Source: Methanobacteriota archaeon (GTDB lineage Archaea > Thermoplasmatota > Poseidoniia > Poseidoniales > Poseidoniaceae). From it: a stretch of 29,773 bases of DNA. The DNA lies in contig WTIV01000096.1 of the NCBI GenBank assembly GCA_011525095.1, positions 1 to 29,773 of the forward strand, given 5' to 3'. The position numbers and the translations under genes are program-made. The number at the start of each line of letters is the position of its first letter. Position 1 is the first letter of the stretch. Of this stretch, positions 2 through 10,922 are shown one piece after another. A model generated the notes under the pieces. It was not told the DNA's origin and searched no databases. It saw only the letters and a list, made by a program, of their open reading frames with translations.

Positions 2-805
2 TTAGATTTAGAGCATCATCAATACATCCTAGAAGAGGATTCTTTCAACTCACGTCTACCTGACTTAGCATGGCATGGTGAAGACCTCGACTTGACGGTC
101 TTGTTTTTCCAGCCACTTTTCGCAAAGATGTCGGAATCCGTAACAGTCGGTCTATGCGGTCAAGGTGCAGACGAACTACACGCAGGATATCCTAGGTACC
201 GTGATTTGTCTGCCCATGCAAATGAAATTCAATCAAGGTTAGATGATTTGAATTGTGACCTAAGCGAACTTACTGGTGAAGAATGGTGGGCTGCAGACCA
301 CTCACCAAAATCTCATTGTGAAAGTTTGCAAGACTTTTTGCAGTTTGAATTAGATCACGGGCAATTGTCTAACTTCCAATTAAGGTTAGTCGACAGGCAT
401 TCAATGGCACATGGTCTGGAGGTTAGGGTTCCTTTCTTGGGTTACCGGCATAGAGATGCTTCAAACAAGTTGCCAATCGACTGGAGGCTACCTAGCAGTT
501 TGGAAGAAAAAGCAGCACTGAGAAAGGCTGCGGATTTGACAGACTTGCCCGCAGAAATTGTGCGTAGGCCAAAATTGCCAGCAGGAAGAGCAACTTCCCC
601 ACGTATGATCGATGCCATAGTTGAAGAATTACAGCCGCGAGTAGAAGATATCGCTGCACGCCACCCGACTATGGAAAAGGCCCTCTTGAAACAACCAGAT
701 ATTGCAATAGGGCTAGGTCTGTTTGAAGCGATGCACATTCTTGATGGCGGCAGAAGCAGGAAAACCGGAGACGCTGCATCATTACTCGATGAGGTGATTG
801 GATGA
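2..805 (+). CDS. asnB: Asparagine synthase (glutamine-hydrolysing) family protein, C-terminal part; 5'-truncated by the window edge
   Basis: The frame is open from position 2 (LDLEHHQY...), so the ORF-track start at 92 is internal. GQGADELHAGY matches the SGEGADElFgGY motif and DRHSMAHGLEVRVPFL matches DRmSMAhglEvRvPFL. True substrate unknown. Confidence 0.85.
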   Translation, partial: LDLEHHQYILEEDSFNSRLPDLAWHGEDLDLTVLFFQPLFAKMSESVTVGLCGQGADELHAGYPRYRDLSAHANEIQSRLDDLNCDLSELTGEEWWAADHSPKSHCESLQDFLQFELDHGQLSNFQLRLVDRHSMAHGLEVRVPFLGYRHRDASNKLPIDWRLPSSLEEKAALRKAADLTDLPAEIVRRPKLPAGRATSPRMIDAIVEELQPRVEDIAARHPTMEKALLKQPDIAIGLGLFEAMHILDGGRSRKTGDAASLLDEVIG

Positions 806-2007
806 CATTTGTGCACGACCTAACTCAAAAATTAGAAGATAATAGAGAACTGATTAGTGAATGGATGGCAAAGAAACGCAGTGAAGTTCCAATACCAATT
901 TATGGAAGCGTGGACATTAGAGACGCAGGTTGGAAAGTTGCAGTTGTGGATGCTAACCACTTCCCAGCAGGTTTCAACAATACTTCACCAGAGGATGAAC
1001 CACATCTTTCTGCACTGCTTAGAAATCACATTAAGCGTAAGCACGAAGGATGTACTTGGGTCCATCTTTATCCTGAGTCTCATACAAGAAATCCGGGGTA
1101 TGTAGAGAATGTTGCAACAATTAAGCGTTTGATTGAAGCAGCAGGATTCAGATGTACGGTTGGCTCGCCCGAACTAGAAGAGCATGGTTCTCTGGATGGA
1201 ATTACGGGTCCTTTGAAATTAGATGCTGTTGAAATTGAAGGAGATAATCTGCTAATTGATGGAGAGAATCCATGTCTTGTACTGTTGAATAACGACCTAA
1301 CAGAAGGCATGGTCGGTGGACTTGGCGCACACCAAGTTTCACCACCACCTCACATGGGCTGGCAGAGGAGAAGAAAAAGCGAGCACTATGAGTGTCTACA
1401 ATCATACGTCAATGAAATAGCTGAAATTCTTGAAATCGATCCATGGCACCTCCTATCCAGTTGGTTCGTTTCTGAAGATAAGTGCCTCGAGAAAGAATCA
1501 TGCCGCCAAATGCTAGCGGCTGAAGTCGATGAATTCCTAGCAAGAATCGAGGCCAAATATCAGACATTAGGAATTGATAGAGAGCCTGTTGCATTTATCA
1601 AAAACGACCGTGGCACCTACGGTCTAGGAATAATGGCTGTAAAAAGTGGGAGCGAATTGTTGAATCTCTCTAATAGAAAATTCAAGCGACTAATGTACTC
1701 TAAAGGCGGAGTAGATGTAGAAAATTTCCTAATTCAAGAGGGTGTTCCAACCGCAATTAATACCGATGAGGGAGCACCAGTAGAACCAGTAGTTTACCTT
1801 GTAGATGGAGAAGCTGCATCTTGGTTTTACCGAATAAATGCAAAGAAGGGAGAGATGGAAAACCTAAATTCGCCCTCGGCTGAGTTCAAACCATACAGCG
1901 AGGTAGGCATACAGTTTGGTGAGCATGCACATGGTTGGCACGCACTTGTGTCAGAATTGTCAATGCTTGCTATGGGCGCTGAATCTCAAAAACAGATGGA
2001 GGGTTGA
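802..2007 (+). CDS. gshA: Glutamate-cysteine ligase, ATP-grasp GshA family (PF08886-like)
   Basis: PIYGSVDIRDAGWKVAVVDANHFPAGFNN, IKNDRGTYGLGIM, LIQEGV, EPVVY and ENLNSP all match this family. ATGA overlap with the upstream stop. Confidence 0.8.
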   Translation: MTFVHDLTQKLEDNRELISEWMAKKRSEVPIPIYGSVDIRDAGWKVAVVDANHFPAGFNNTSPEDEPHLSALLRNHIKRKHEGCTWVHLYPESHTRNPGYVENVATIKRLIEAAGFRCTVGSPELEEHGSLDGITGPLKLDAVEIEGDNLLIDGENPCLVLLNNDLTEGMVGGLGAHQVSPPPHMGWQRRRKSEHYECLQSYVNEIAEILEIDPWHLLSSWFVSEDKCLEKESCRQMLAAEVDEFLARIEAKYQTLGIDREPVAFIKNDRGTYGLGIMAVKSGSELLNLSNRKFKRLMYSKGGVDVENFLIQEGVPTAINTDEGAPVEPVVYLVDGEAASWFYRINAKKGEMENLNSPSAEFKPYSEVGIQFGEHAHGWHALVSELSMLAMGAESQKQMEG

Positions 2008-3002: not shown

Positions 3003-3650
3003 ATGCGCAGGGTTGCAGTTTACGCATTAACAATCGGCATTGGTTTGTATGTTAGTGCAAAGTATGCTGAATGGCCTGTAAATATCTGGTGCTTGGGTCT
3101 ATTTGCTTGGTTATTCAAAGAGGCTGAAAGAAAAGAGCGGATTGAGATGTTGACCGTGTTAGCATTTGCGACTCCAATGGAACTGTTTTTCTCAGAGGTT
3201 TGGTTAATTTACGAATATCAACGTGGATTAATGCCTCTATTCGTACCGGTTGGCCACTGGTTCTTATTTGATGCAGGTCGAAGGCTGAGTCAATATCTTG
3301 CAGCAGATAAAGCGATGTTGAGTTTGCTGCCGTTTGTGCCTTTAGTCGCTTACGGGGTATGGACTGGCGGAGATACCTCTGCAGTATTTTTGCTAGTCTT
3401 GGTTCTTGTTTTCACCAGATGGGGCCCACAGCCAGCACTCTATGCAACAATGGCTTGGGCTGCTCTTCTGATGGAGTTATGGGGGACATATCTTACAAAT
3501 TGGACATGGGCAAATGAAGTTCCATGGACGGGACTCACGGCATGGAATCCTCCTCTTCTTGTTGGAGCATTCTATTGCCTTGGAGACTGGTTGGTGAATA
3601 TTTCAGTAGAGAGGTTTGAAAGTAAGCACCCAGTGGAGGTAGATGTATGA
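3003..3650 (+). CDS. Hypothetical multi-pass membrane protein (~7 hydrophobic segments)
   Basis: 216-aa ORF, GGTGA RBS at 2994-2998, hydrophobic and Trp-rich, ATGA overlap with the next gene. Confidence 0.75.
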   Translation: MRRVAVYALTIGIGLYVSAKYAEWPVNIWCLGLFAWLFKEAERKERIEMLTVLAFATPMELFFSEVWLIYEYQRGLMPLFVPVGHWFLFDAGRRLSQYLAADKAMLSLLPFVPLVAYGVWTGGDTSAVFLLVLVLVFTRWGPQPALYATMAWAALLMELWGTYLTNWTWANEVPWTGLTAWNPPLLVGAFYCLGDWLVNISVERFESKHPVEVDV

Positions 3651-3979
3651 CCTCGCGTGATGATTTGGCCAAGCGTCGCGAAGCTGAGGCTGAGCGAATC
3701 GCTATCTCTCTTGCTAGGCAAAAAGGAGAGAGAAGGTCCACTATCAAAGGTGGCGAGGGAACTGTTGCTTGGGTTACAGAGAACTTGTGTATTGGTTGTG
3801 ACCAATGCACGATAGTTTGCGATGATGATGCTATTGAACTGTACTTCAAGGACATGGCTTCTCCACTGCTTCAAGTCCCAAGTAACAGAAAAGCGAGAAT
3901 TATTCGAGATGCTTGCACAGGGTGCCGGTTGTGTGTGCTAGCATGTCCAACAGACGCAATTACGATGATTGATAGGTGA
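3647..3979 (+). CDS. 2x[4Fe-4S] dicluster ferredoxin-like protein with charged N-terminal extension
   Basis: CIGCDQCTIVC and CTGCRLCVLACP motifs (CxxCxxCxxxC twice). Confidence 0.85.
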   Translation: MTSRDDLAKRREAEAERIAISLARQKGERRSTIKGGEGTVAWVTENLCIGCDQCTIVCDDDAIELYFKDMASPLLQVPSNRKARIIRDACTGCRLCVLACPTDAITMIDR

Positions 3980-3983
3980 TAAT

Positions 3984-4256
3984 ATGTCAAAACAACCAGA
4001 ACATGAAGGCGCACAAAGATTCGGGGGAGAATTCGGTCCAAAGAGGGGATCAAATACTACAGGCGTTTCTCTATCGACATTCAAGACTCTAGTTTGGGTG
4101 TCAAACATTGGTGGGCTGCTACTAGTTGTATTCGCACTAGAATTCCTGTTTGTTCAGCAAGAATTTGGTATGGGTCTTGGGTTCCTAATTGCAGGTGTTA
4201 TAGTCGCTCTATTCCCCTCAAATTACGAAATTAGAGGAATGGAAGAGGAACCCTGA
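3984..4256 (+). CDS. Small hypothetical membrane protein (2 TM)
   Basis: ATG at 3984 behind AGGTGA; two hydrophobic stretches; in line with the operon. Confidence 0.65.
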   Translation: MSKQPEHEGAQRFGGEFGPKRGSNTTGVSLSTFKTLVWVSNIGGLLLVVFALEFLFVQQEFGMGLGFLIAGVIVALFPSNYEIRGMEEEP

Positions 4257-4258
4257 AA

Positions 4259-5050
4259 TCATTCGATTTCGAATCTTTCTTCACACGTTGGACACTTTAC
4301 TTTGCCCTTGTAGTCACTCGGTACTTTCAGTGGAGAATCACAATGTGCACAATTGATGACAATCTTGGTTTCAACATCATTTCTGTTGCCCCACATCAAT
4401 GGTATCGGTGAGAACCAATCTGCTGTATCGATTAGCGACCTGAGATATTTTGGCGAACCATCTCTGAAATTTGATGGATCTGCAGTTAGCAGTGGTAGTG
4501 CTACAATTAGCATACAGAATCCTGAACAGAATAATGAGAAACCAACCGATCCTTCACCCGTTCCTTGTCCTACTGACAAGAAGCTGCCTTGTTTGTCAAT
4601 ATAGATGAGTGAAAGCAACCCTGAAATTACTAAGGTAATCAAGGCAAAATACAGTCCAACTCGATACCCCTGCACAGACAGTATCCCACTGAAAACGAAC
4701 GCTGTTCCGATAAATAAGACAAAGAAGTATTCCTCATCATCAGCAAACATCCCCCAAAAGAGCCTAAACAAACCGTACAAGATTATTAGGAATCCAGTAA
4801 TTTGAACAACACTGGTTGTGTTATTTGTGATGAAGATTTGTTGAGGCTGCCCACCATACATCTGTTGCCCATACATTTGCTGCTGTGCAAAATTGACCTG
4901 TTGTTGCGGGATTGATACAGACTGTGGTTGCTTAGACTCATCATCTTCCATTAGTCTGATTACGACTTCAGCCTTGTTACCACTAACTTTGAGGCCTCTG
5001 TCTTTACACATCGTCTTGAGTTCAAGAAGAGTAAGACTGTCGTAATCCAT
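4259..5050 (-). CDS. SAP-domain / 4-TM / C-terminal zinc-ribbon protein
   Basis: N-terminus YDSLTLLELKTMCKDRGLKVSGNKAEVVIRL fits the SAP consensus. It is followed by a Gln-rich linker, four hydrophobic helices and a C-terminal CAHC-x15-CPTC. Confidence 0.75.
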   Translation of the reverse strand: MDYDSLTLLELKTMCKDRGLKVSGNKAEVVIRLMEDDESKQPQSVSIPQQQVNFAQQQMYGQQMYGGQPQQIFITNNTTSVVQITGFLIILYGLFRLFWGMFADDEEYFFVLFIGTAFVFSGILSVQGYRVGLYFALITLVISGLLSLIYIDKQGSFLSVGQGTGEGSVGFSLFCSGFCMLIVALPLLTADPSNFRDGSPKYLRSLIDTADWFSPIPLMWGNRNDVETKIVINCAHCDSPLKVPSDYKGKVKCPTCEERFEIE

Positions 5051-5116: not shown

Positions 5117-7921
5117 TTATGCTTCAACAGAAACTCTCGACGTACTTGCTTCTTCAGCAAGTGACTTCTTTGCTTCAACCTGGCGTGCTAGGAATGATAC
5201 AACATCGAGAATCTCGATGTCATGCCTTTCATCGCCTTCGAACTTGAGACACTCAAAGTGAGAAACACACTTTGGACAGGATGTAATCATCATGTCTGCG
5301 CCAGTGTTGCGGATTTCCTCCATTCTGGATACTCTCAGTGCACGAGCGTTCTCATTACAAGACATCATGCTTGAGACACCACAGCACATTGCATCTTCGC
5401 CATGGTGCTCCATCTCTACGAGTTCAACTCCTTCGACTCCAGCAACTAGTTCACGTGGTTCATCATAGATACCCATCTGTCTACCTAGTCTACATGGGTC
5501 GTGATAGGTAACTGTCAATTCATCTTCTGCCTTCATCTGCATGTCGAATCCATTTTCGATTAGGAATTCTGTTGTATGCATGACTTTGACGCCTTCTAAT
5601 TCGTAATCACGAGCGAATGTTCTGAAACATTCAGCGCATGAGGAAACTAGTGTGTCAATTCCGGATGCTTCGATCTTCTTCTGGTTGTATGCCTTGAGTT
5701 TGTCAAACACCTCATCAAGACCTTGCCACTTCTGGTCGTGTCCACAACACTTCAGGAAGTCACGTCCGAGATATGAGACATCTGTTCCCATCTCTTCGAA
5801 TAGTGTGAATGCTGCAGTTGTTGTTTCTCCTAGGTCCATCGAGCCTTCGTTTAGGTGGCTGAACACCATCTCTTGGTCTAGGTAGTCTACACATCCTGGA
5901 TAGTAGCCGATGTTTGAATCGATTGGGTAATCTTCGACTGAAACGAAATCAGCGTCACTCTCTTCCTCCGCTTCTGCAGCTAGTACTGCTTGCAGGACAG
6001 TGTGAGGGATTTCAGCAGCTGGACCACCGACGATCAACGAGCGGCGAATGTCAACATATGAATCGTAGTTGACCAATTGTGGACATGCGTTTGTACATGC
6101 AGTACATGTTAAACACGAATACAGCGGTACACCATCGTCTTCGTTATTCCATGAGTTGTAAATGATGTTCAACTTGTCACCAGCGTTGAAGAGTCTGACA
6201 GGACATGCATCGTCACATAGGTCACAGCCGTAACACTTGTTCATCTCGAACTCATATCCACGAGCCATGTTTCTCAATACCACGAATGTGATTGCACCTG
6301 CGGTAATACAAGGGATGAACATAGCATAAGTCAACTTAGCATCCAATGCTAGAGGGTTAGTGTGGTAAGTTGGGTTTACGATAACTCCCATGTTCTCACC
6401 TTCTAACTCCATGTTCAGGGAGTTAGATAGGTCGACAGTCATTCCAGCAAGACCGTTTCCAGCATCGTCATCATAGAGAAGAAGTGGCTGGAATGCTTGA
6501 ATTGTGAATAAGGTTTCAACAGTAACTGAATTGTTTGCTCTTAGGCCATCTGTTGATTCTACCTTAAACTCATAGTCGTATGTACCTGAAGCAAGTTCAA
6601 TTCCTAACTCACCTGTGTTACAATCGGTATTGACTACAACGTCGCCACTGTCTCTCTGTGTGATAACTAGGCTTGATTGAATCATTCCAGAGGTGGAGTC
6701 TCCACCATCAATTAGAACTTCACTCGCTCTTGTAGCACACGTAGCGTCTAGAGGTACTGTAGTGAAGTCGTTGTCTTCAGGCCAGTAATCATCGGTGATG
6801 ATGAACGAACCTGTTGCCCATACAGTTTCATCAGCAGAATAATTCTGTAGTCCAGATTTACCATTTACACCAGAATCTAAATCTTGGTGTCCGTTATTGT
6901 CTGAGAAATCAATGAGATAATACCGCGTTGGTTGGTATATGTTCCAATCCATCCATGCAGCTGCCGGAACTATGTCTCCATCGAATCCTTGCAGGTCCAT
7001 GAATTCGGTTCTCTCATTTACTTGAACATCGGTTGGTTGTGACCTCATCTCTTCCAATTTCTCATAATCGGAGATTGTTAGCAGTCCCTTTGCATCCCAG
7101 AATCCGTTATCGTAAACCGGGTATGTGACAACGCTTGCAGCAGTTGCAACGATGAAAGCACCAACGATGAGTTTCTTGCCGTGTGCTGGAGTGAATCTTG
7201 CACCCCATGCGTTGTTGAATAGCCACTTGGCGATGAAGTAGATCATTATCCAAAGAAGAATACCTGTCATTACCCAGGGTATCATGTTGAATAAATCAGC
7301 AATCCACGGGTCTCTCACACCACAGAGTAAATCACCATGGCTGTCTAACTTACAGAAGTCGCTTCTATTCTTCCCATACAATTCAAGGAAGATGTTGATT
7401 GAGAACACTGAGATAAACCAAATGTGAGCTAAGTAAACTACACCTGCACTAGCAAACCATGGGTCTTCAACAGGCCTCTTCTCACGACCGCCTAGGAATG
7501 GAGGTAGTGCTAGGATACCGACTGGGATTCCAGTGAGGAAAGCACCCCACCATGCAGCGTTCCATGGGAAAGATGGCTGCCCAAAGAAATCACCAATTGG
7601 TCCTAAAGGTACGTCAAACTGAGGTAGATATTCTCCCCATCGTAGGTATCCGTAAGAAAACAGCACATACCAATCAGGGAAAACGAATCCTGCTTGAGCG
7701 AATGGGTCCGCTGCACTGTGAAGTGGTGGTGGAATTAACCACGCGTAGAATAGAAGTGTGCATATCATGAAACCGAAGATAAGGCTGTCACGTAGAACTT
7801 CGTGAGGCCAGAAGCCGTGTCCTTCACGAGTACGCTTACGCTTTTCTTCAGCAGACTGCAACTGCTCTTTTTGATCCATGTATGAGGATGCTACTGCTCC
7901 AAAATTGTCTATAATTCCCAA
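5117..7921 (-). CDS. Fusion: cytochrome b6 subunit IV (PetD-like) + extra TMs + extracellular domain + 2x[4Fe-4S] + two CCG domains (HdrD/GlpC-like)
   Basis: FWPHEVL...PDWY (Qo motif at 7667-7678); CYGCDLCDDACP and CLTCTACTNACP; YYPGC..CCGH..SSCAEC and YHDPCRLGR..CCG..TSCPKC. One uninterrupted 934-aa ORF with TTG start behind AGGAGG. Confidence 0.85.
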   Translation of the reverse strand: MGIIDNFGAVASSYMDQKEQLQSAEEKRKRTREGHGFWPHEVLRDSLIFGFMICTLLFYAWLIPPPLHSAADPFAQAGFVFPDWYVLFSYGYLRWGEYLPQFDVPLGPIGDFFGQPSFPWNAAWWGAFLTGIPVGILALPPFLGGREKRPVEDPWFASAGVVYLAHIWFISVFSINIFLELYGKNRSDFCKLDSHGDLLCGVRDPWIADLFNMIPWVMTGILLWIMIYFIAKWLFNNAWGARFTPAHGKKLIVGAFIVATAASVVTYPVYDNGFWDAKGLLTISDYEKLEEMRSQPTDVQVNERTEFMDLQGFDGDIVPAAAWMDWNIYQPTRYYLIDFSDNNGHQDLDSGVNGKSGLQNYSADETVWATGSFIITDDYWPEDNDFTTVPLDATCATRASEVLIDGGDSTSGMIQSSLVITQRDSGDVVVNTDCNTGELGIELASGTYDYEFKVESTDGLRANNSVTVETLFTIQAFQPLLLYDDDAGNGLAGMTVDLSNSLNMELEGENMGVIVNPTYHTNPLALDAKLTYAMFIPCITAGAITFVVLRNMARGYEFEMNKCYGCDLCDDACPVRLFNAGDKLNIIYNSWNNEDDGVPLYSCLTCTACTNACPQLVNYDSYVDIRRSLIVGGPAAEIPHTVLQAVLAAEAEEESDADFVSVEDYPIDSNIGYYPGCVDYLDQEMVFSHLNEGSMDLGETTTAAFTLFEEMGTDVSYLGRDFLKCCGHDQKWQGLDEVFDKLKAYNQKKIEASGIDTLVSSCAECFRTFARDYELEGVKVMHTTEFLIENGFDMQMKAEDELTVTYHDPCRLGRQMGIYDEPRELVAGVEGVELVEMEHHGEDAMCCGVSSMMSCNENARALRVSRMEEIRNTGADMMITSCPKCVSHFECLKFEGDERHDIEILDVVSFLARQVEAKKSLAEEASTSRVSVEA

Positions 7922-7937
7922 ACTTTTCCCTCCTGTA

Positions 7938-8804
7938 TCAATGCGGCTCCGCTATTCCTTGAACCCATACAATGAACAAATGTATGATGATTAGAGTTGT
8001 AACGATAACTGGTAGAATGAATACGTGAATGAAGTACATTCGTGTTACAGTTCTGTGTGAGAGGGAGGAACCAGAGAATAGTAACGTAGCGATGTACTTT
8101 CCAATCAATGGTGTAGCGTTTGCTAGGTTAATTCCGATAACAGCAGCTCCGTATGCCAGTGTATCCCATGGAAGTAGATATCCTGAGTAGCCGAAGACAA
8201 TTGTTAGTGCCATTAGAGCAACACCGATTAGCCAGTTTAACTCACGTGGATTGCGGTATGCACCAGTAAAGTATACTCTGCACATGTGTAAGAATACTGA
8301 TGCTACCATGAAGTGTGTACCCCAGTGGTGTACCGCACGGATGATGTAACCGAATGGAAGTTGTGTCATGATGAATTGCATACTCGCATATGCAGGGGAT
8401 GGATCACCCTCTCCACCTGGGACATAGTAGATTCCGAGAACGGTTCCAGTTAGTACTAGAATGATGAATGATAGGAATGAAATTCCACCCAAGCAATACA
8501 ATGGGTACCAATACCAAATGATACGGAGCTTGTATTTCTCTGCGTGTGTTAGAGGCATCTGTCTGTGCATGTTGTAGTATGCACCCTTGGACATATTCCA
8601 GTAGTCTTGAATCCTAAATCTAGTATCCAAGAATGAGAATACCCACAAGAACGCACGCTCAGCGAATCCCATCTTGCCGCTGGATTCAACAGCACGCAGA
8701 ATTTCTCTGCGAGGAATCTCTTCGTTTTCTTTGCGTAGAGTAAACGCAATCAAGACAATAATGAATGCTATGAAGAACCAAAGTACCCAGAAAATCGTGC
8801 TCAA
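7938..8804 (-). CDS. petB: Split cytochrome b (cytochrome b6 / PetB type) with N-terminal TM extension
   Basis: YCLGGISF, RAVHHW, FLHMCRVYFTGAY, RELNW, GYLLPWD, FIHVFILP...IIHLF, C-terminal QGIAEPH. All four heme-b His ligands are present. TTG start behind GAGGTGA. Confidence 0.92.
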   Translation of the reverse strand: MSTIFWVLWFFIAFIIVLIAFTLRKENEEIPRREILRAVESSGKMGFAERAFLWVFSFLDTRFRIQDYWNMSKGAYYNMHRQMPLTHAEKYKLRIIWYWYPLYCLGGISFLSFIILVLTGTVLGIYYVPGGEGDPSPAYASMQFIMTQLPFGYIIRAVHHWGTHFMVASVFLHMCRVYFTGAYRNPRELNWLIGVALMALTIVFGYSGYLLPWDTLAYGAAVIGINLANATPLIGKYIATLLFSGSSLSHRTVTRMYFIHVFILPVIVTTLIIIHLFIVWVQGIAEPH

Positions 8805-8813
8805 ATTATCACC

Positions 8814-9662
8814 TCAGTCGCAGTAGGTCAACCAGCCCGTGTAATCAGAAGACGCTTCGATAGTGTCTCCGTTCATAATGATTGGAATGATTGGTAGTCC
8901 AAGAGGCGCAGGACCACCAGCTCTTCTGATACCTAGGTATTCGAAAGAAGCACCAGTTGACCTGTTTGCGTTTCTGTTGACCTCGATCGCAGTTGGGTCG
9001 AATCTGCTGGAGTGGCAGATGCAGAACATTTTGCTTCCACCATCGTCTCCACCACCTGGGGTCCAGTTGTCATCTGTCTGAGTGTTTGATACAAGTTGCC
9101 AACCTGGGATACAGCACAGGTGTGTGCATCTTGCAAAGCTCATGACGAGGTTGTTGTTTGGGTCGAAGACTTCCGAGTTTCCGAGCAAGAATTCAGTTGC
9201 GTGGCCAACGTAGTTGCCACCGATGTCGTAACCTGCCATTTCTTGGAATCTTGGTAGGTTGTCTGCTACAGGCTTACCTGAGTTTTCAGCGTGAGGTACG
9301 TAGTTGACGATTACCGGTAGTCCATTCCAAACACCTTGTGCACCAGCCATGCCAACGTTTGAGTTGGCGGCTTCAGATTCGAAGTCTGACTTCATCATCG
9401 GTTGAAGGTGCTTAGCTCCATACCATGCTTCTTCTTCACGACCCTTTGCCCAGTAAAGAACTGAAGAGTCTCCTCCTCCACCACCGGATGGTGGCATCAG
9501 GATCGCAGCGAAACCTAATGCTCCGAGCGTTGCTGCTAGCACACCGCCAGCAGCGTTGAATCCGTATCGCATGAATTGCCTACGGTTAACCGAGACTTCA
9601 CCGAGTGAACCTAGAACTGAGTCTTCAAGTGATGGTGCTGGTCTTAATCTCCTGTCGTCCAT
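8814..9662 (-). CDS. petC: Rieske [2Fe-2S] protein with Tat signal-anchor
   Basis: VNRRQFMR twin-arginine motif plus TM helix and Gly-rich hinge; box 1 CTHLCC (9111-9128) and box 2 CICHSSRF (9012-9023). ATG at 9662 behind GGTGA is preferred over the ORF-track start at 9734, which overlaps the upstream gene. Confidence 0.9.
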   Translation of the reverse strand: MDDRRLRPAPSLEDSVLGSLGEVSVNRRQFMRYGFNAAGGVLAATLGALGFAAILMPPSGGGGGDSSVLYWAKGREEEAWYGAKHLQPMMKSDFESEAANSNVGMAGAQGVWNGLPVIVNYVPHAENSGKPVADNLPRFQEMAGYDIGGNYVGHATEFLLGNSEVFDPNNNLVMSFARCTHLCCIPGWQLVSNTQTDDNWTPGGGDDGGSKMFCICHSSRFDPTAIEVNRNANRSTGASFEYLGIRRAGGPAPLGLPIIPIIMNGDTIEASSDYTGWLTYCD

Positions 9663-9666
9663 AATA

Positions 9667-10119
9667 TCACCACTTGTATTCTCTCCAATCCTTCTGATGT
9701 TCAGGGATGTACTTGTTCTGGCTATGCTTGACAATGATTGTGTCAGGCAACACGAATTTCAGATAGATGATTCCCATCATAATCAGGGTTGTAATGCCCA
9801 TGGCCATGTGATAGGATAGTTGCTGTTGGTCCCAACTAGAGCCGTTGAGCAGCCCGTATAGCATAGTTCCAAACCAGTACAAGGCCCAGAAAATTCCCCA
9901 TGAGAAGAAGAATATCGTAAGGGCAGATTTACCCGATGGTGCCAAAGATGCTGAGATTACTGTACCTGGTTCTGCTGGATTGAATACTCCGTGATTAATC
10001 GCAGCATCCATCTGTTCTTCAGTGAGTGATGCATCTTCTAGTGCTGTGCGAGCATCCTTGACGCTCACCTTACCTGCAGCGACCTTCTCAAGCAGTTGTG
10101 TGATCGTGTCTTTAGCCAT
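9667..10119 (-). CDS. Hypothetical 2-TM protein, translationally coupled within the Rieske/cytb operon
   Basis: TGATG overlap with the upstream gene; its stop overlaps the Rieske RBS; short helical N-terminal domain followed by two TM helices. Confidence 0.7.
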   Translation of the reverse strand: MAKDTITQLLEKVAAGKVSVKDARTALEDASLTEEQMDAAINHGVFNPAEPGTVISASLAPSGKSALTIFFFSWGIFWALYWFGTMLYGLLNGSSWDQQQLSYHMAMGITTLIMMGIIYLKFVLPDTIIVKHSQNKYIPEHQKDWREYKW

Positions 10120-10922
10120 CACTGGTCACCTCTTCTGTTAATCTTGTATCTCAGTCTCAGCAAGTTGCTGCGGCCTTTGTAAGATGTTGAGAACCCGTAT
10201 CTTAGGAGGAGTCCACAGAATACAATCACTGCGATTACTGCGCCAAATCCTAGTAGTCCAAGCCAGTGTGCTCTGAAACCAGCACCAAGTGTCGAGATGT
10301 CGATTTCCCCGGCTTTACTTTCTGGTGCTTGTGGAGTTCCGCTTCCTGCGATTAGGGTTCTATCTCCTCTCTTATCATCTGCTGGCGCTTCTATTAGATT
10401 GAATACAATCTGGTTCCAATAATCTCCAGCGGGTCCGTCTGCTCCATTGACAGCGTTTCCGCTAATCCAGAAGTCGACAGTTGTTCCGCTAGAATTGTCA
10501 GCAGGTGCGGTCCATGTAAGTTCAAAGATTCTTGAGTTGGGCGATTGGTGTGTTCTGGTTGCTGCATCATCTTCCCATGCTTCGCCATCACCGGACCATT
10601 CTCCTGCGCTGACTCTAGCAGAGAATCCACCCATGTTAGTGTCCGGGCCACCGATGACTTCCAATCTCATGTCATACTCTGTATCTGCGACCCATGTGTA
10701 TGGGACACCGACAAGGAGGACCATGACATCGTTACTTGGCTGTTCTCCATGGCATAAACAACCCTCTTTGGCTACGTCATCGATTGTTTCTCCATTGTGA
10801 GAATGACCGCCAGCTCCGATGCCGTCTGGGTATGCGTTGGTGATGCCCGGCAAGAGCATCAAAGTTACAAGCACCATAGGCAGGAGACTTCGTTGGAAAA
10901 CCTTCGACATTAGCATCGCCAA
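10119..10922 (-). CDS. Exported Reeler-like (choice-of-anchor V-like) protein with CLCH motif and C-terminal membrane anchor
   Basis: Signal peptide ending ...GITNA; GHSH and GCLCHG; LTWTAPA..VDFWISGNAVNG..GDYW matches Reeler-like domains from memory; TM HWLGLLGFGAVIAVIVFCGLLL. Start could be 10922, 10916 or 10910. Confidence 0.7.
   Translation of the reverse strand: MAMLMSKVFQRSLLPMVLVTLMLLPGITNAYPDGIGAGGHSHNGETIDDVAKEGCLCHGEQPSNDVMVLLVGVPYTWVADTEYDMRLEVIGGPDTNMGGFSARVSAGEWSGDGEAWEDDAATRTHQSPNSRIFELTWTAPADNSSGTTVDFWISGNAVNGADGPAGDYWNQIVFNLIEAPADDKRGDRTLIAGSGTPQAPESKAGEIDISTLGAGFRAHWLGLLGFGAVIAVIVFCGLLLRYGFSTSYKGRSNLLRLRYKINRRGDQ

Follow-up and report, generated by a model that had tools for sequence, protein, structure and literature searches.

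The window analysed here is a 29,773-nucleotide (nt) stretch of contig WTIV01000096.1 (assembly GCA_011525095.1) from an archaeon of the family Poseidoniaceae (order Poseidoniales, Marine Group II or MGII). It carries an operon for a Rieske/cytochrome b complex (complex III), in which genes for an exported anchor protein, a DUF7318-like membrane protein, a Rieske protein and cytochrome b6 are followed by a fusion gene that is the subject of this report. The fusion gene is a single uninterrupted frame of 934 codons that encodes four parts in order: a domain like PetD, an ectodomain, a sixth transmembrane (TM) helix (TM6) and an iron-sulphur (Fe-S) module with CCG domains that resembles HdrD (Table 1). 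Its TTG start lies 16 nt past the stop of the cytochrome b6 gene upstream, and homologues share the start position of the 934-amino-acid (aa) protein.

A preliminary description of the window, made from its letters alone, had noted this one long frame and asked whether it is conserved in Poseidoniales. The open frame is confirmed, and the fusion gene is present in 39/41 related genomes, including 16/16 high-quality ones, from three families of the order. A word-indexed protein search with the fusion returned 640 matches; the best 120 of these are nearly all 900–970 aa long with 98–100% coverage, and a few are shorter fragments. Database names of the homologues, which come from Poseidoniaceae and other Thermoplasmatota metagenome-assembled genomes, are only “Fe-S oxidoreductase”, “HdrD” and “4Fe-4S dicluster protein”. 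At 50% identity the fused family falls into ~10 clusters. Near-identical sequence occurs in metagenomes of at least five studies and in metatranscriptomes, and contigs from two independent DNA runs and two RNA runs bridge every domain boundary of the fusion with no joints or indels. A chimera or misassembly is ruled out by these joint-free DNA and RNA runs, by the hundreds of full-length homologues from independent assemblies and by the genome counts. The fusion gene is a genuine, conserved variant of the Rieske/cytochrome b complex.

Related forms occur outside the order. Short forms of 540–790 aa (a four-TM PetD, a dicluster and two CCG domains) were found in at least three other Thermoplasmatota families and on several unbinned contigs, and split forms carry PetD plus dicluster and CCG-CCG as adjoining genes, like HdrC/HdrB. 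The architecture first noted in the window is therefore conserved in Poseidoniales but not confined there. In the loci of all inspected relatives, the fused or split gene follows Rieske and then cytochrome b6. A tree of the HdrD-type module, made by a quick search with uncharacterised stand-alone relatives as comparison and rooted on one long branch, groups all fused and split forms (SH-aLRT, the Shimodaira-Hasegawa-like approximate likelihood ratio test, 93) along with one 394-aa protein that is not known as fused. In the same tree, the long forms of Poseidoniales are monophyletic (support 100) and the fused/split group is nested among stand-alone HdrD-like proteins (support 97). This fits a single origin of the fusion, with a helix-ectodomain-helix unit that would have been inserted later in Poseidoniales, where the order of events is a reading of the tree.

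Table 1. Coordinates of the fusion gene, its parts, neighbouring genes in the window and split forms at related loci (positions are those of the window unless a locus is named)
Feature	Position	Strand	Basis or remark
Fusion gene: PetD-like domain + ectodomain + TM6 + HdrD-like module	5117..7921	-	934-aa open frame
Shine-Dalgarno-like GGAGGG	7928..7933	-	6 nt ahead of TTG start at 7921
Subunit-IV/cytochrome b C-half homologue, residues 1-270, five TM helices (E, F, G, H equivalents + one)	7112..7921	-	PDB profile search, hydropathy, AlphaFold2 helices
PDWY Qo-site motif, residues 82-85	7667..7678	-	invariant in family
p-side beta-sandwich domain, residues 271-529, acidic, Cys pair C395/C434	6335..7111	-	no metal-site signature
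Sixth TM helix, residues 530-548, predicted to bring chain back to cytoplasm	6278..6334	-	hydropathy, AlphaFold2
Two CxxCxxCxxxCP motifs, C563-P574 and C603-P614, 2x[4Fe-4S]	6080..6235	-	all 8 Cys invariant
CCG domain 1: C677, C725-C726-G, C762-A-E-C765	5627..5893	-	Pfam, alignment
CCG domain 2: C810, C846-C847-G, C882-P-K-C885, plus C855, H888, C891	5249..5494	-	Pfam, alignment
Cytochrome b6, 288 aa, extra N-terminal helix, Hx13H + Hx14H haem ligands	7938..8804	-	Pfam/NCBIfam, motif
Divergent Rieske protein, CTHLCC + CICHSS boxes, twin-arginine-like RRQF	8814..9734	-	domain scan
Small membrane protein, weak DUF7318 match	9667..10122	-	domain scan
Exported, C-terminally anchored “choice-of-anchor V” protein (76 bits), CLCH motif, first operon gene	10119..10922	-	domain scan
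RnfB-like 2x[4Fe-4S] ferredoxin, 110 aa, proposed redox partner	3647..3979	+	convergent with fusion here
95-aa membrane protein travelling with ferredoxin gene	3969..4256	+	orthologue L013:5916-6230 (-)
SAP-domain, 4-TM, zinc-ribbon protein between fusion and ferredoxin genes	4259-5050	-	
Archaeal-type glutamate-cysteine ligase GshA	802-2007	+	E 2e-102, 3 kb from fusion
Split form in sister family, same class	L012:6854-9863	+	followed by 321-aa polyferredoxin with zinc-ferredoxin-like unit
Split form	L033:6001-7834	+	PetD+dicluster gene, then CCG-CCG gene

Domains and membrane topology

The preliminary description had named a PetD domain, six hydrophobic helices, two CxxCxxCxxxCP motifs, two CCG domains and a cytoplasmic position of the Fe-S part, and all of these assignments stand. 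The PetD part of the 934-aa protein itself reaches no Pfam threshold and matches b6f subunit IV with E ~0.1 only, in an alignment that covers the PEWY region. A family profile made from the N-terminal region of 22 members, the window protein included, was searched against the PDB. This profile matches cytochrome b C-terminal halves (E 4e-12), b6f subunit IV (E 2e-10, across nearly the whole 160-aa chain) and, through a fourth helix, actinobacterial QcrB. Shorter relatives pass PF00032 with 33.9 and 39.3 bits (cut-off 20.7). PDWY is invariant across 62 family members, and E41, R44 and D45 vary hardly or not at all. The N-terminal part is identified as a PetD homologue because the family profile matches both cytochrome b C-halves and b6f subunit IV. 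Rather than the canonical three-helix subunit IV of ~160 aa with a p-side C-terminus, the fusion has six helices, 934 aa and a C-terminal module that is predicted on the n side.

Hydropathy gives helices at residues 46–64, 126–144, 161–179, 213–231, 251–269 and 530–548, and an AlphaFold2 (AF2) model built with 62 homologues (mean pLDDT, the predicted local distance difference test, 76.6) has the same six. By homology with bc1 and b6f complexes, where this is established, the N-terminus of subunit IV and the beginning of helix E face the n side and the PDWY loop faces the p side. The segments predicted inside are rich in K/R (seven in the N-terminal segment, three in loop 145–160 and three in loop 239–250, which has no acidic residue), and those predicted outside include the PDWY loop with one K/R and the acidic 260-residue segment 270–529 with 46 D/E. 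Two predicted outside segments, loop 180–212 and segment 270–529, each contain a conserved cysteine pair (C190/C200 and C395/C434), and all 18 cluster cysteines fall in the part predicted to be inside. Ahead of the Fe-S module, short relatives have four helices, so that parity is the same in every form. In all forms, a cytoplasmic (n-side) location of the Fe-S/CCG module is supported because homology places the N-terminus inside, the helix number is even and the charge pattern agrees.

The ectodomain is specific to Poseidoniales, and short forms are without it. Its fold matches are weak GOLD, P-domain and jelly-roll hits only, and no conserved metal-ligand pattern was found in it beyond one cysteine pair. 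A cupredoxin- or cytochrome-like ectodomain that stands in for cytochrome f/c1 was considered and rejected, since the confident model is a plain beta-sandwich.

Pfam recognises one 4Fe-4S dicluster domain (residues 559–615) and two CCG domains (87 bits, cut-off 20.6) in the 934-aa protein. The first dicluster cysteine comes 14 residues after TM6, and ~20 residues after the last helix in short forms. The canonical CCG cysteines span C677 to C885, or about nt 5266–5893; these 10 and the eight dicluster cysteines are fully or almost fully conserved among 62 fused proteins of 33–88% identity. The HdrD-like module has the HdrB/LutA/EtfD fold, with a Foldseek E of 3e-14 to EtfD and a TM-score of 0.6–0.76 to HdrB and LutA; EtfD is also the best phmmer match in the PDB (91 bits). 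A search of the ESM Atlas returned only the family’s own clusters and generic bacterial CCG proteins. C855, H888 and C891 (window ~5249–5359), together with H728/D729 and E764, do not vary among the fused proteins or ~45 stand-alone HdrD-like relatives. The C855/H888/C891 set is lacking in an EtfD-like paralogue described below and is not seen in aligned HdrB chains; it is a subfamily signature that might provide additional cluster ligands or a redox-active pair.

A linked ferredoxin and candidate electron routes

In five genomes examined, cytochrome b occurs exactly once and always next to the fusion. The preliminary description had predicted haem ci on this cytochrome b, and the haem-ci cysteine is present: it is Cys104 of YCLGG (nt 8493–8495) in the window, and CxGG occurs in the cytochrome b6 of 9/10 loci with a fused PetD. 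A gene linked with the fusion encodes a small ferredoxin. Its orthologues have 110–135 aa, with exactly one match per genome in 61/61 genomes of the order. Among families it is closest to RnfB, of which only the dicluster part matches, with 48.6 bits and thus below the 68.7 cut-off, so that by this measure the 110-aa protein is RnfB-like only and not RnfB. No other Rnf subunits have been reported from MGII, where an orphan RnfB has been noted (Tully 2019, PMC6336850). In all 16 genomes of MGIIb (family f3) and in the one genome of family f2, the ferredoxin gene is on the same strand and ~0–650 nt downstream of the fusion; in 17 genomes of MGIIa (family f1, which includes the window) the two are convergent and 0.3–3.7 kb apart. 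The linkage carries weight because the order is operon-like in MGIIb and because distant families have an equivalent gene: the ferredoxin is 39–40% identical to one unit of the polyferredoxins encoded after the fusion in L009 and L012, which represent two other families. The membrane protein encoded after the ferredoxin is always present, with 95–104 aa, one or two hydrophobic helices and no family match, and could serve to tether the ferredoxin to the membrane or complex.

We lean towards reading the fusion as an Fe-S wire on the n side that connects ferredoxin with the Qi/haem-ci site of the sole Rieske/cytochrome b6 complex. The fusion would be a subunit IV with a covalent n-side chain of two cubane [4Fe-4S] and two CCG-type clusters. 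The dicluster domain would sit on the n-side membrane surface, near haem bH, haem ci and the Qi pocket, because the module starts 14 residues past the last helix. The RnfB-like 2x[4Fe-4S] ferredoxin would be the dedicated soluble partner of this wire, and 2-oxoacid:ferredoxin oxidoreductases would supply reduced ferredoxin in aerobic Poseidoniales. Net flow would run from ferredoxin through the Fe-S wire to haem ci/Qi and quinone. This direction is probably correct and is favoured because such oxidoreductases are present (POR in 4/4 high-quality genomes) and NuoF was not found (0/5 genomes). Complex III would thereby contain a built-in ferredoxin:quinone reductase, comparable to the long-debated role of b6f in cyclic flow. 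Architecture, conservation, helix parity and gene linkage are established here; we infer all four of docking over Qi, electron transfer, partner identity and direction.

Several observations weigh against this wire. The ferredoxin gene is convergent with the fusion and not co-operonic in the window, it is ~14–16 kb away in seven genomes of one genus (g12), and synteny counts are not independent because gene order is inherited among relatives. The 11-subunit complex I could already serve to oxidise ferredoxin. In the AF2 model the dicluster domain is poor (pLDDT <50 for residues 567–642). A ferredoxin port needs no CCG clusters, yet these are strictly conserved, and the conserved C855/H888/C891 triad is not accounted for by a pure ferredoxin port.

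Other lineages encode different partners directly after the fusion. These are HdrA-like flavoproteins with ferredoxin and FlpD/MvhD domains (L011, L015, L030, L033 and L010), which score 145–160 bits to HdrA2 models, or HdrC-like, HdrB-like and HdrA-like genes (L016 and L028). In some lineages outside the order, the stop and start codons of fusion and partner genes overlap. The nearest stand-alone relatives of the module belong to soluble HdrD-HdrC-HdrB-HdrA-FlpD or HdrD-polyferredoxin-FlpD-HdrA clusters. FlpD/MvhD and HdrA-like genes were not found in five Poseidoniales genomes, and HdrA/MvhD was thus set aside as the partner there. An extended form of the ferredoxin port may be envisaged, in which a hard-wired ferredoxin:quinone reductase lies within a Q-cycle enzyme and the Hdr-type arm feeds haem ci/Qi from ferredoxin, so that a cytoplasmic electron completes every turnover at Qo, the activity long debated for chloroplast b6f; in the relatives with HdrA/MvhD, Qo bifurcation and flavin (HdrA) bifurcation would then be coupled in one complex. 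This extension is possible but doubtful. To our knowledge, no characterised enzyme combines quinone-based and flavin-based bifurcation in one complex.

The same architecture and partners would serve for electron exit, in which the low-potential electron from Qo passes through bL, bH, ci and the Fe-S wire to ferredoxin, or to an HdrA-type flavoprotein in the relatives, as quinol-driven reverse transport. HdrA-like/MvhD partners are typical of bifurcating systems, and the Rieske/cytochrome b complexes of anammox bacteria have been proposed to generate NAD(P)H in a comparable way (PMC12954380). However, exit from the complex is unlikely: the electron must go against the membrane potential to a very-low-potential carrier, aerobic heterotrophs with 2-oxoacid:ferredoxin oxidoreductases have reduced ferredoxin in surplus, and the HdrA and MvhD partners are those missing from the five Poseidoniales genomes.

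The CCG clusters themselves raise Hdr chemistry, in which they would reduce a disulfide or oxidise thiols (of a small molecule or a protein) and exchange electrons with quinone through cytochrome b6, much as HdrDE does with methanophenazine. All 10 cysteines of the HdrB-type signature are present in the module and both of its domains have CCG, compared to CSG/CTG plus His in EtfD, and its closest stand-alone relatives lie within Hdr gene clusters. Its top NCBIfam match is the C-half of the thiol-oxidising TfrB, and a glutamate-cysteine ligase gene lies nearby, which suggests gamma-glutamylcysteine as a cellular thiol. The TfrB match has only 116 bits against an equivalog cut-off of 385, and none of the curated NCBIfam models for Hdr, TfrB, GlpC, GlcF and DsrK was reached at cut-off. 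No substrate is evident, LutA-, GlcF- and GlpC-type enzymes, which also have complete CCG motifs, are not known to do disulfide chemistry, and the GshA linkage was followed within close relatives only. Open noncubane clusters are also expected to be oxygen-sensitive (PMC13083937), and the hosts are surface-ocean aerobes. Thiol or disulfide chemistry at the fused module is thus rather unlikely, slightly more so than exit.

The PetD part could instead be a mere membrane anchor, with the HdrD-like module reducing quinone or serving a docked dehydrogenase apart from the b haems, like GlpC/SdhE. GlpC and GlcF are indeed membrane-associated Fe-S subunits of quinone-linked dehydrogenases, and the module has weak NCBIfam matches to them. 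An anchor alone is improbable: in all lineages, and over a long evolutionary time, the module has always been joined to subunit IV of the only complex III, no linked dehydrogenase gene was found, and the same module in EtfD passes electrons to a haem.

EtfD also suggests that the module might take electrons of EtfAB from beta-oxidation or amino-acid catabolism as an ETF:quinone oxidoreductase (ETF, electron transfer flavoprotein). EtfD is the closest solved structure, EtfAB occurs in 5/5 genomes and an ETF-QO/FixX domain in 0/5. A 679-aa paralogue with NarI-like membrane, dicluster and two CCG domains (L027:4984-7023, minus strand, in MGIIb genome G039) is a far better EtfD orthologue, with 358 bits to EtfD 9ojn across the membrane and soluble halves and with CSG and CPHC signatures. 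It is encoded in every Poseidoniales genome examined; ~680-aa EtfD-like matches occur in most relatives, and the 72%-complete G000 gave none. Where the paralogue has CSG and CPHC, the fused module has CCG and CAEC, and the two are far apart in the tree. An ETF role of the fused module is highly improbable because this separate orthologue exists, and the idea was dropped. The role is most likely held by the 679-aa paralogue, and EtfD-type ETF:quinone coupling may be the route in Poseidoniales. Donor options in the preliminary description were ferredoxin, a thiol/disulfide or an organic substrate; ferredoxin has gained support from the linked RnfB-like gene, and the ETF/organic-substrate route has lost it to the EtfD orthologue.

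Comparison with known systems

Several known complexes share parts of this arrangement. Mycobacterial EtfD (PDB 9ojn) has a wire from CCG clusters D1 and D2 to cubanes D3 and D4, haem b and menaquinone in steps of 7–9 Å (PMC13083937). Like the fusion, it is one chain with a membrane domain, then a dicluster, then two CCG domains, and it is the best PDB match in sequence and fold. It differs in its 5-TM NarI-like mono-haem domain, linear [3Fe-4S] cluster (CTG) and His ligand (CPHC), where the fusion has a PetD-like domain, CCG and CAEC. HdrD of HdrDE, the membrane-bound CoB-CoM heterodisulfide reductase from Methanosarcina, likewise combines 2x[4Fe-4S] with two CCG domains of five cysteines each, in a cytoplasmic position on a b-type cytochrome that uses a quinone-like carrier. 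Its partner is the NarI-type dihaem HdrE rather than a Rieske/cytochrome b6 Q-cycle complex, its host is a methanogen rather than an aerobic heterotroph, and no curated Hdr cut-off is reached by the fusion.

For the b6f complex, haem ci has been proposed as a point of entry for ferredoxin electrons. The b6f and Firmicute/heliobacterial b6-type complexes have in common with the locus here a split b6 and subunit IV, Hx13H and Hx14H, CxGG, P(E/D)WY and an upstream Rieske gene. Subunit IV here additionally has helix H, Poseidoniales add two helices and an ectodomain, and an 18-Cys Fe-S module is fused. A cytochrome f/c1 gene is absent here, and contact with ferredoxin would be hard-wired instead of transient. 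With its permanent Fe-S arm on the n side by haem ci, such a complex would be a natural model for the disputed ferredoxin-to-Qi route of b6f. Anammox Rieske/cytochrome b complexes are similar in that the core is thought to trade electrons with cytoplasmic n-side carriers; they differ in having unrelated FAD/NAD(P) and haem subunits and no CCG module, in being bacterial and in a proposed generation of NAD(P)H.

The preliminary description had left open a check of whether this architecture is already known. For the fusion itself, no paper was found that describes a PetD-HdrD fusion or that links Poseidoniales with HdrD, and reviews of cytochrome bc evolution that were searched (PMC5600118) do not mention one. 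The neighbourhood, however, has been mentioned before: Diamond et al. 2022 (PMC9038741) reported that hdrD-like and rnfB-like genes adjoin complex III in Angelarchaeales and suggested, in one sentence, a ferredoxin entry point. That locus, compared by description only, belongs to the same phylum and shares neighbourhood genes and the functional guess, but has another gene order; a PetD fusion, its topology, its spread in Poseidoniales and HdrA/MvhD partners are not described in that account. The architecture has been noticed in passing, is undescribed as a fusion and is uncharacterised.

Few archaea of the surface ocean are as abundant as Poseidoniales. As this is their sole complex III, its wiring sets energy conservation for a large share of marine heterotrophic respiration. 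The MGII host has been described as an aerobic photoheterotroph (PMC6336850), and MGII have been reported to have cytochrome b and Rieske without a canonical bc1, along with “MGII specific (complex III)” proteins (Tully 2019, PMC6336850). The fusion gives concrete meaning to this “MGII-specific complex III” and to the unexplained orphan “RnfB” (PMC6336850). Relatives that bear HdrA/MvhD suggest an evolutionary link between electron-splitting machines of Hdr type and of Q-cycle type.

Other genes of the operon and its surroundings

DUF7318 genes lie upstream of Rieske in every related operon inspected. The Rieske protein of the window has no PF00355 match, scores 36 bits to a proteobacterial Rieske model and has a long insertion; Rieske proteins of short-form operons match PF00355 normally. 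The “choice-of-anchor V” protein is a candidate p-side partner in this operon without cytochrome c1/f. The SAP-domain gene is missing at the corresponding position in a close relative (L017/L018). In other Thermoplasmatota, cytochrome b6 has long outside N-terminal extensions (L010:7564-10020, minus strand; L011:3003-5618, plus strand; L015:7343-9973, plus strand). One extended cytochrome b6 of 818 aa has two cupredoxin/plastocyanin-like domains as well as Ig-like domains; four Big_5 domains are found in others. For the cupredoxin-bearing case, the likely electron acceptor is part of the cytochrome b6 chain itself.

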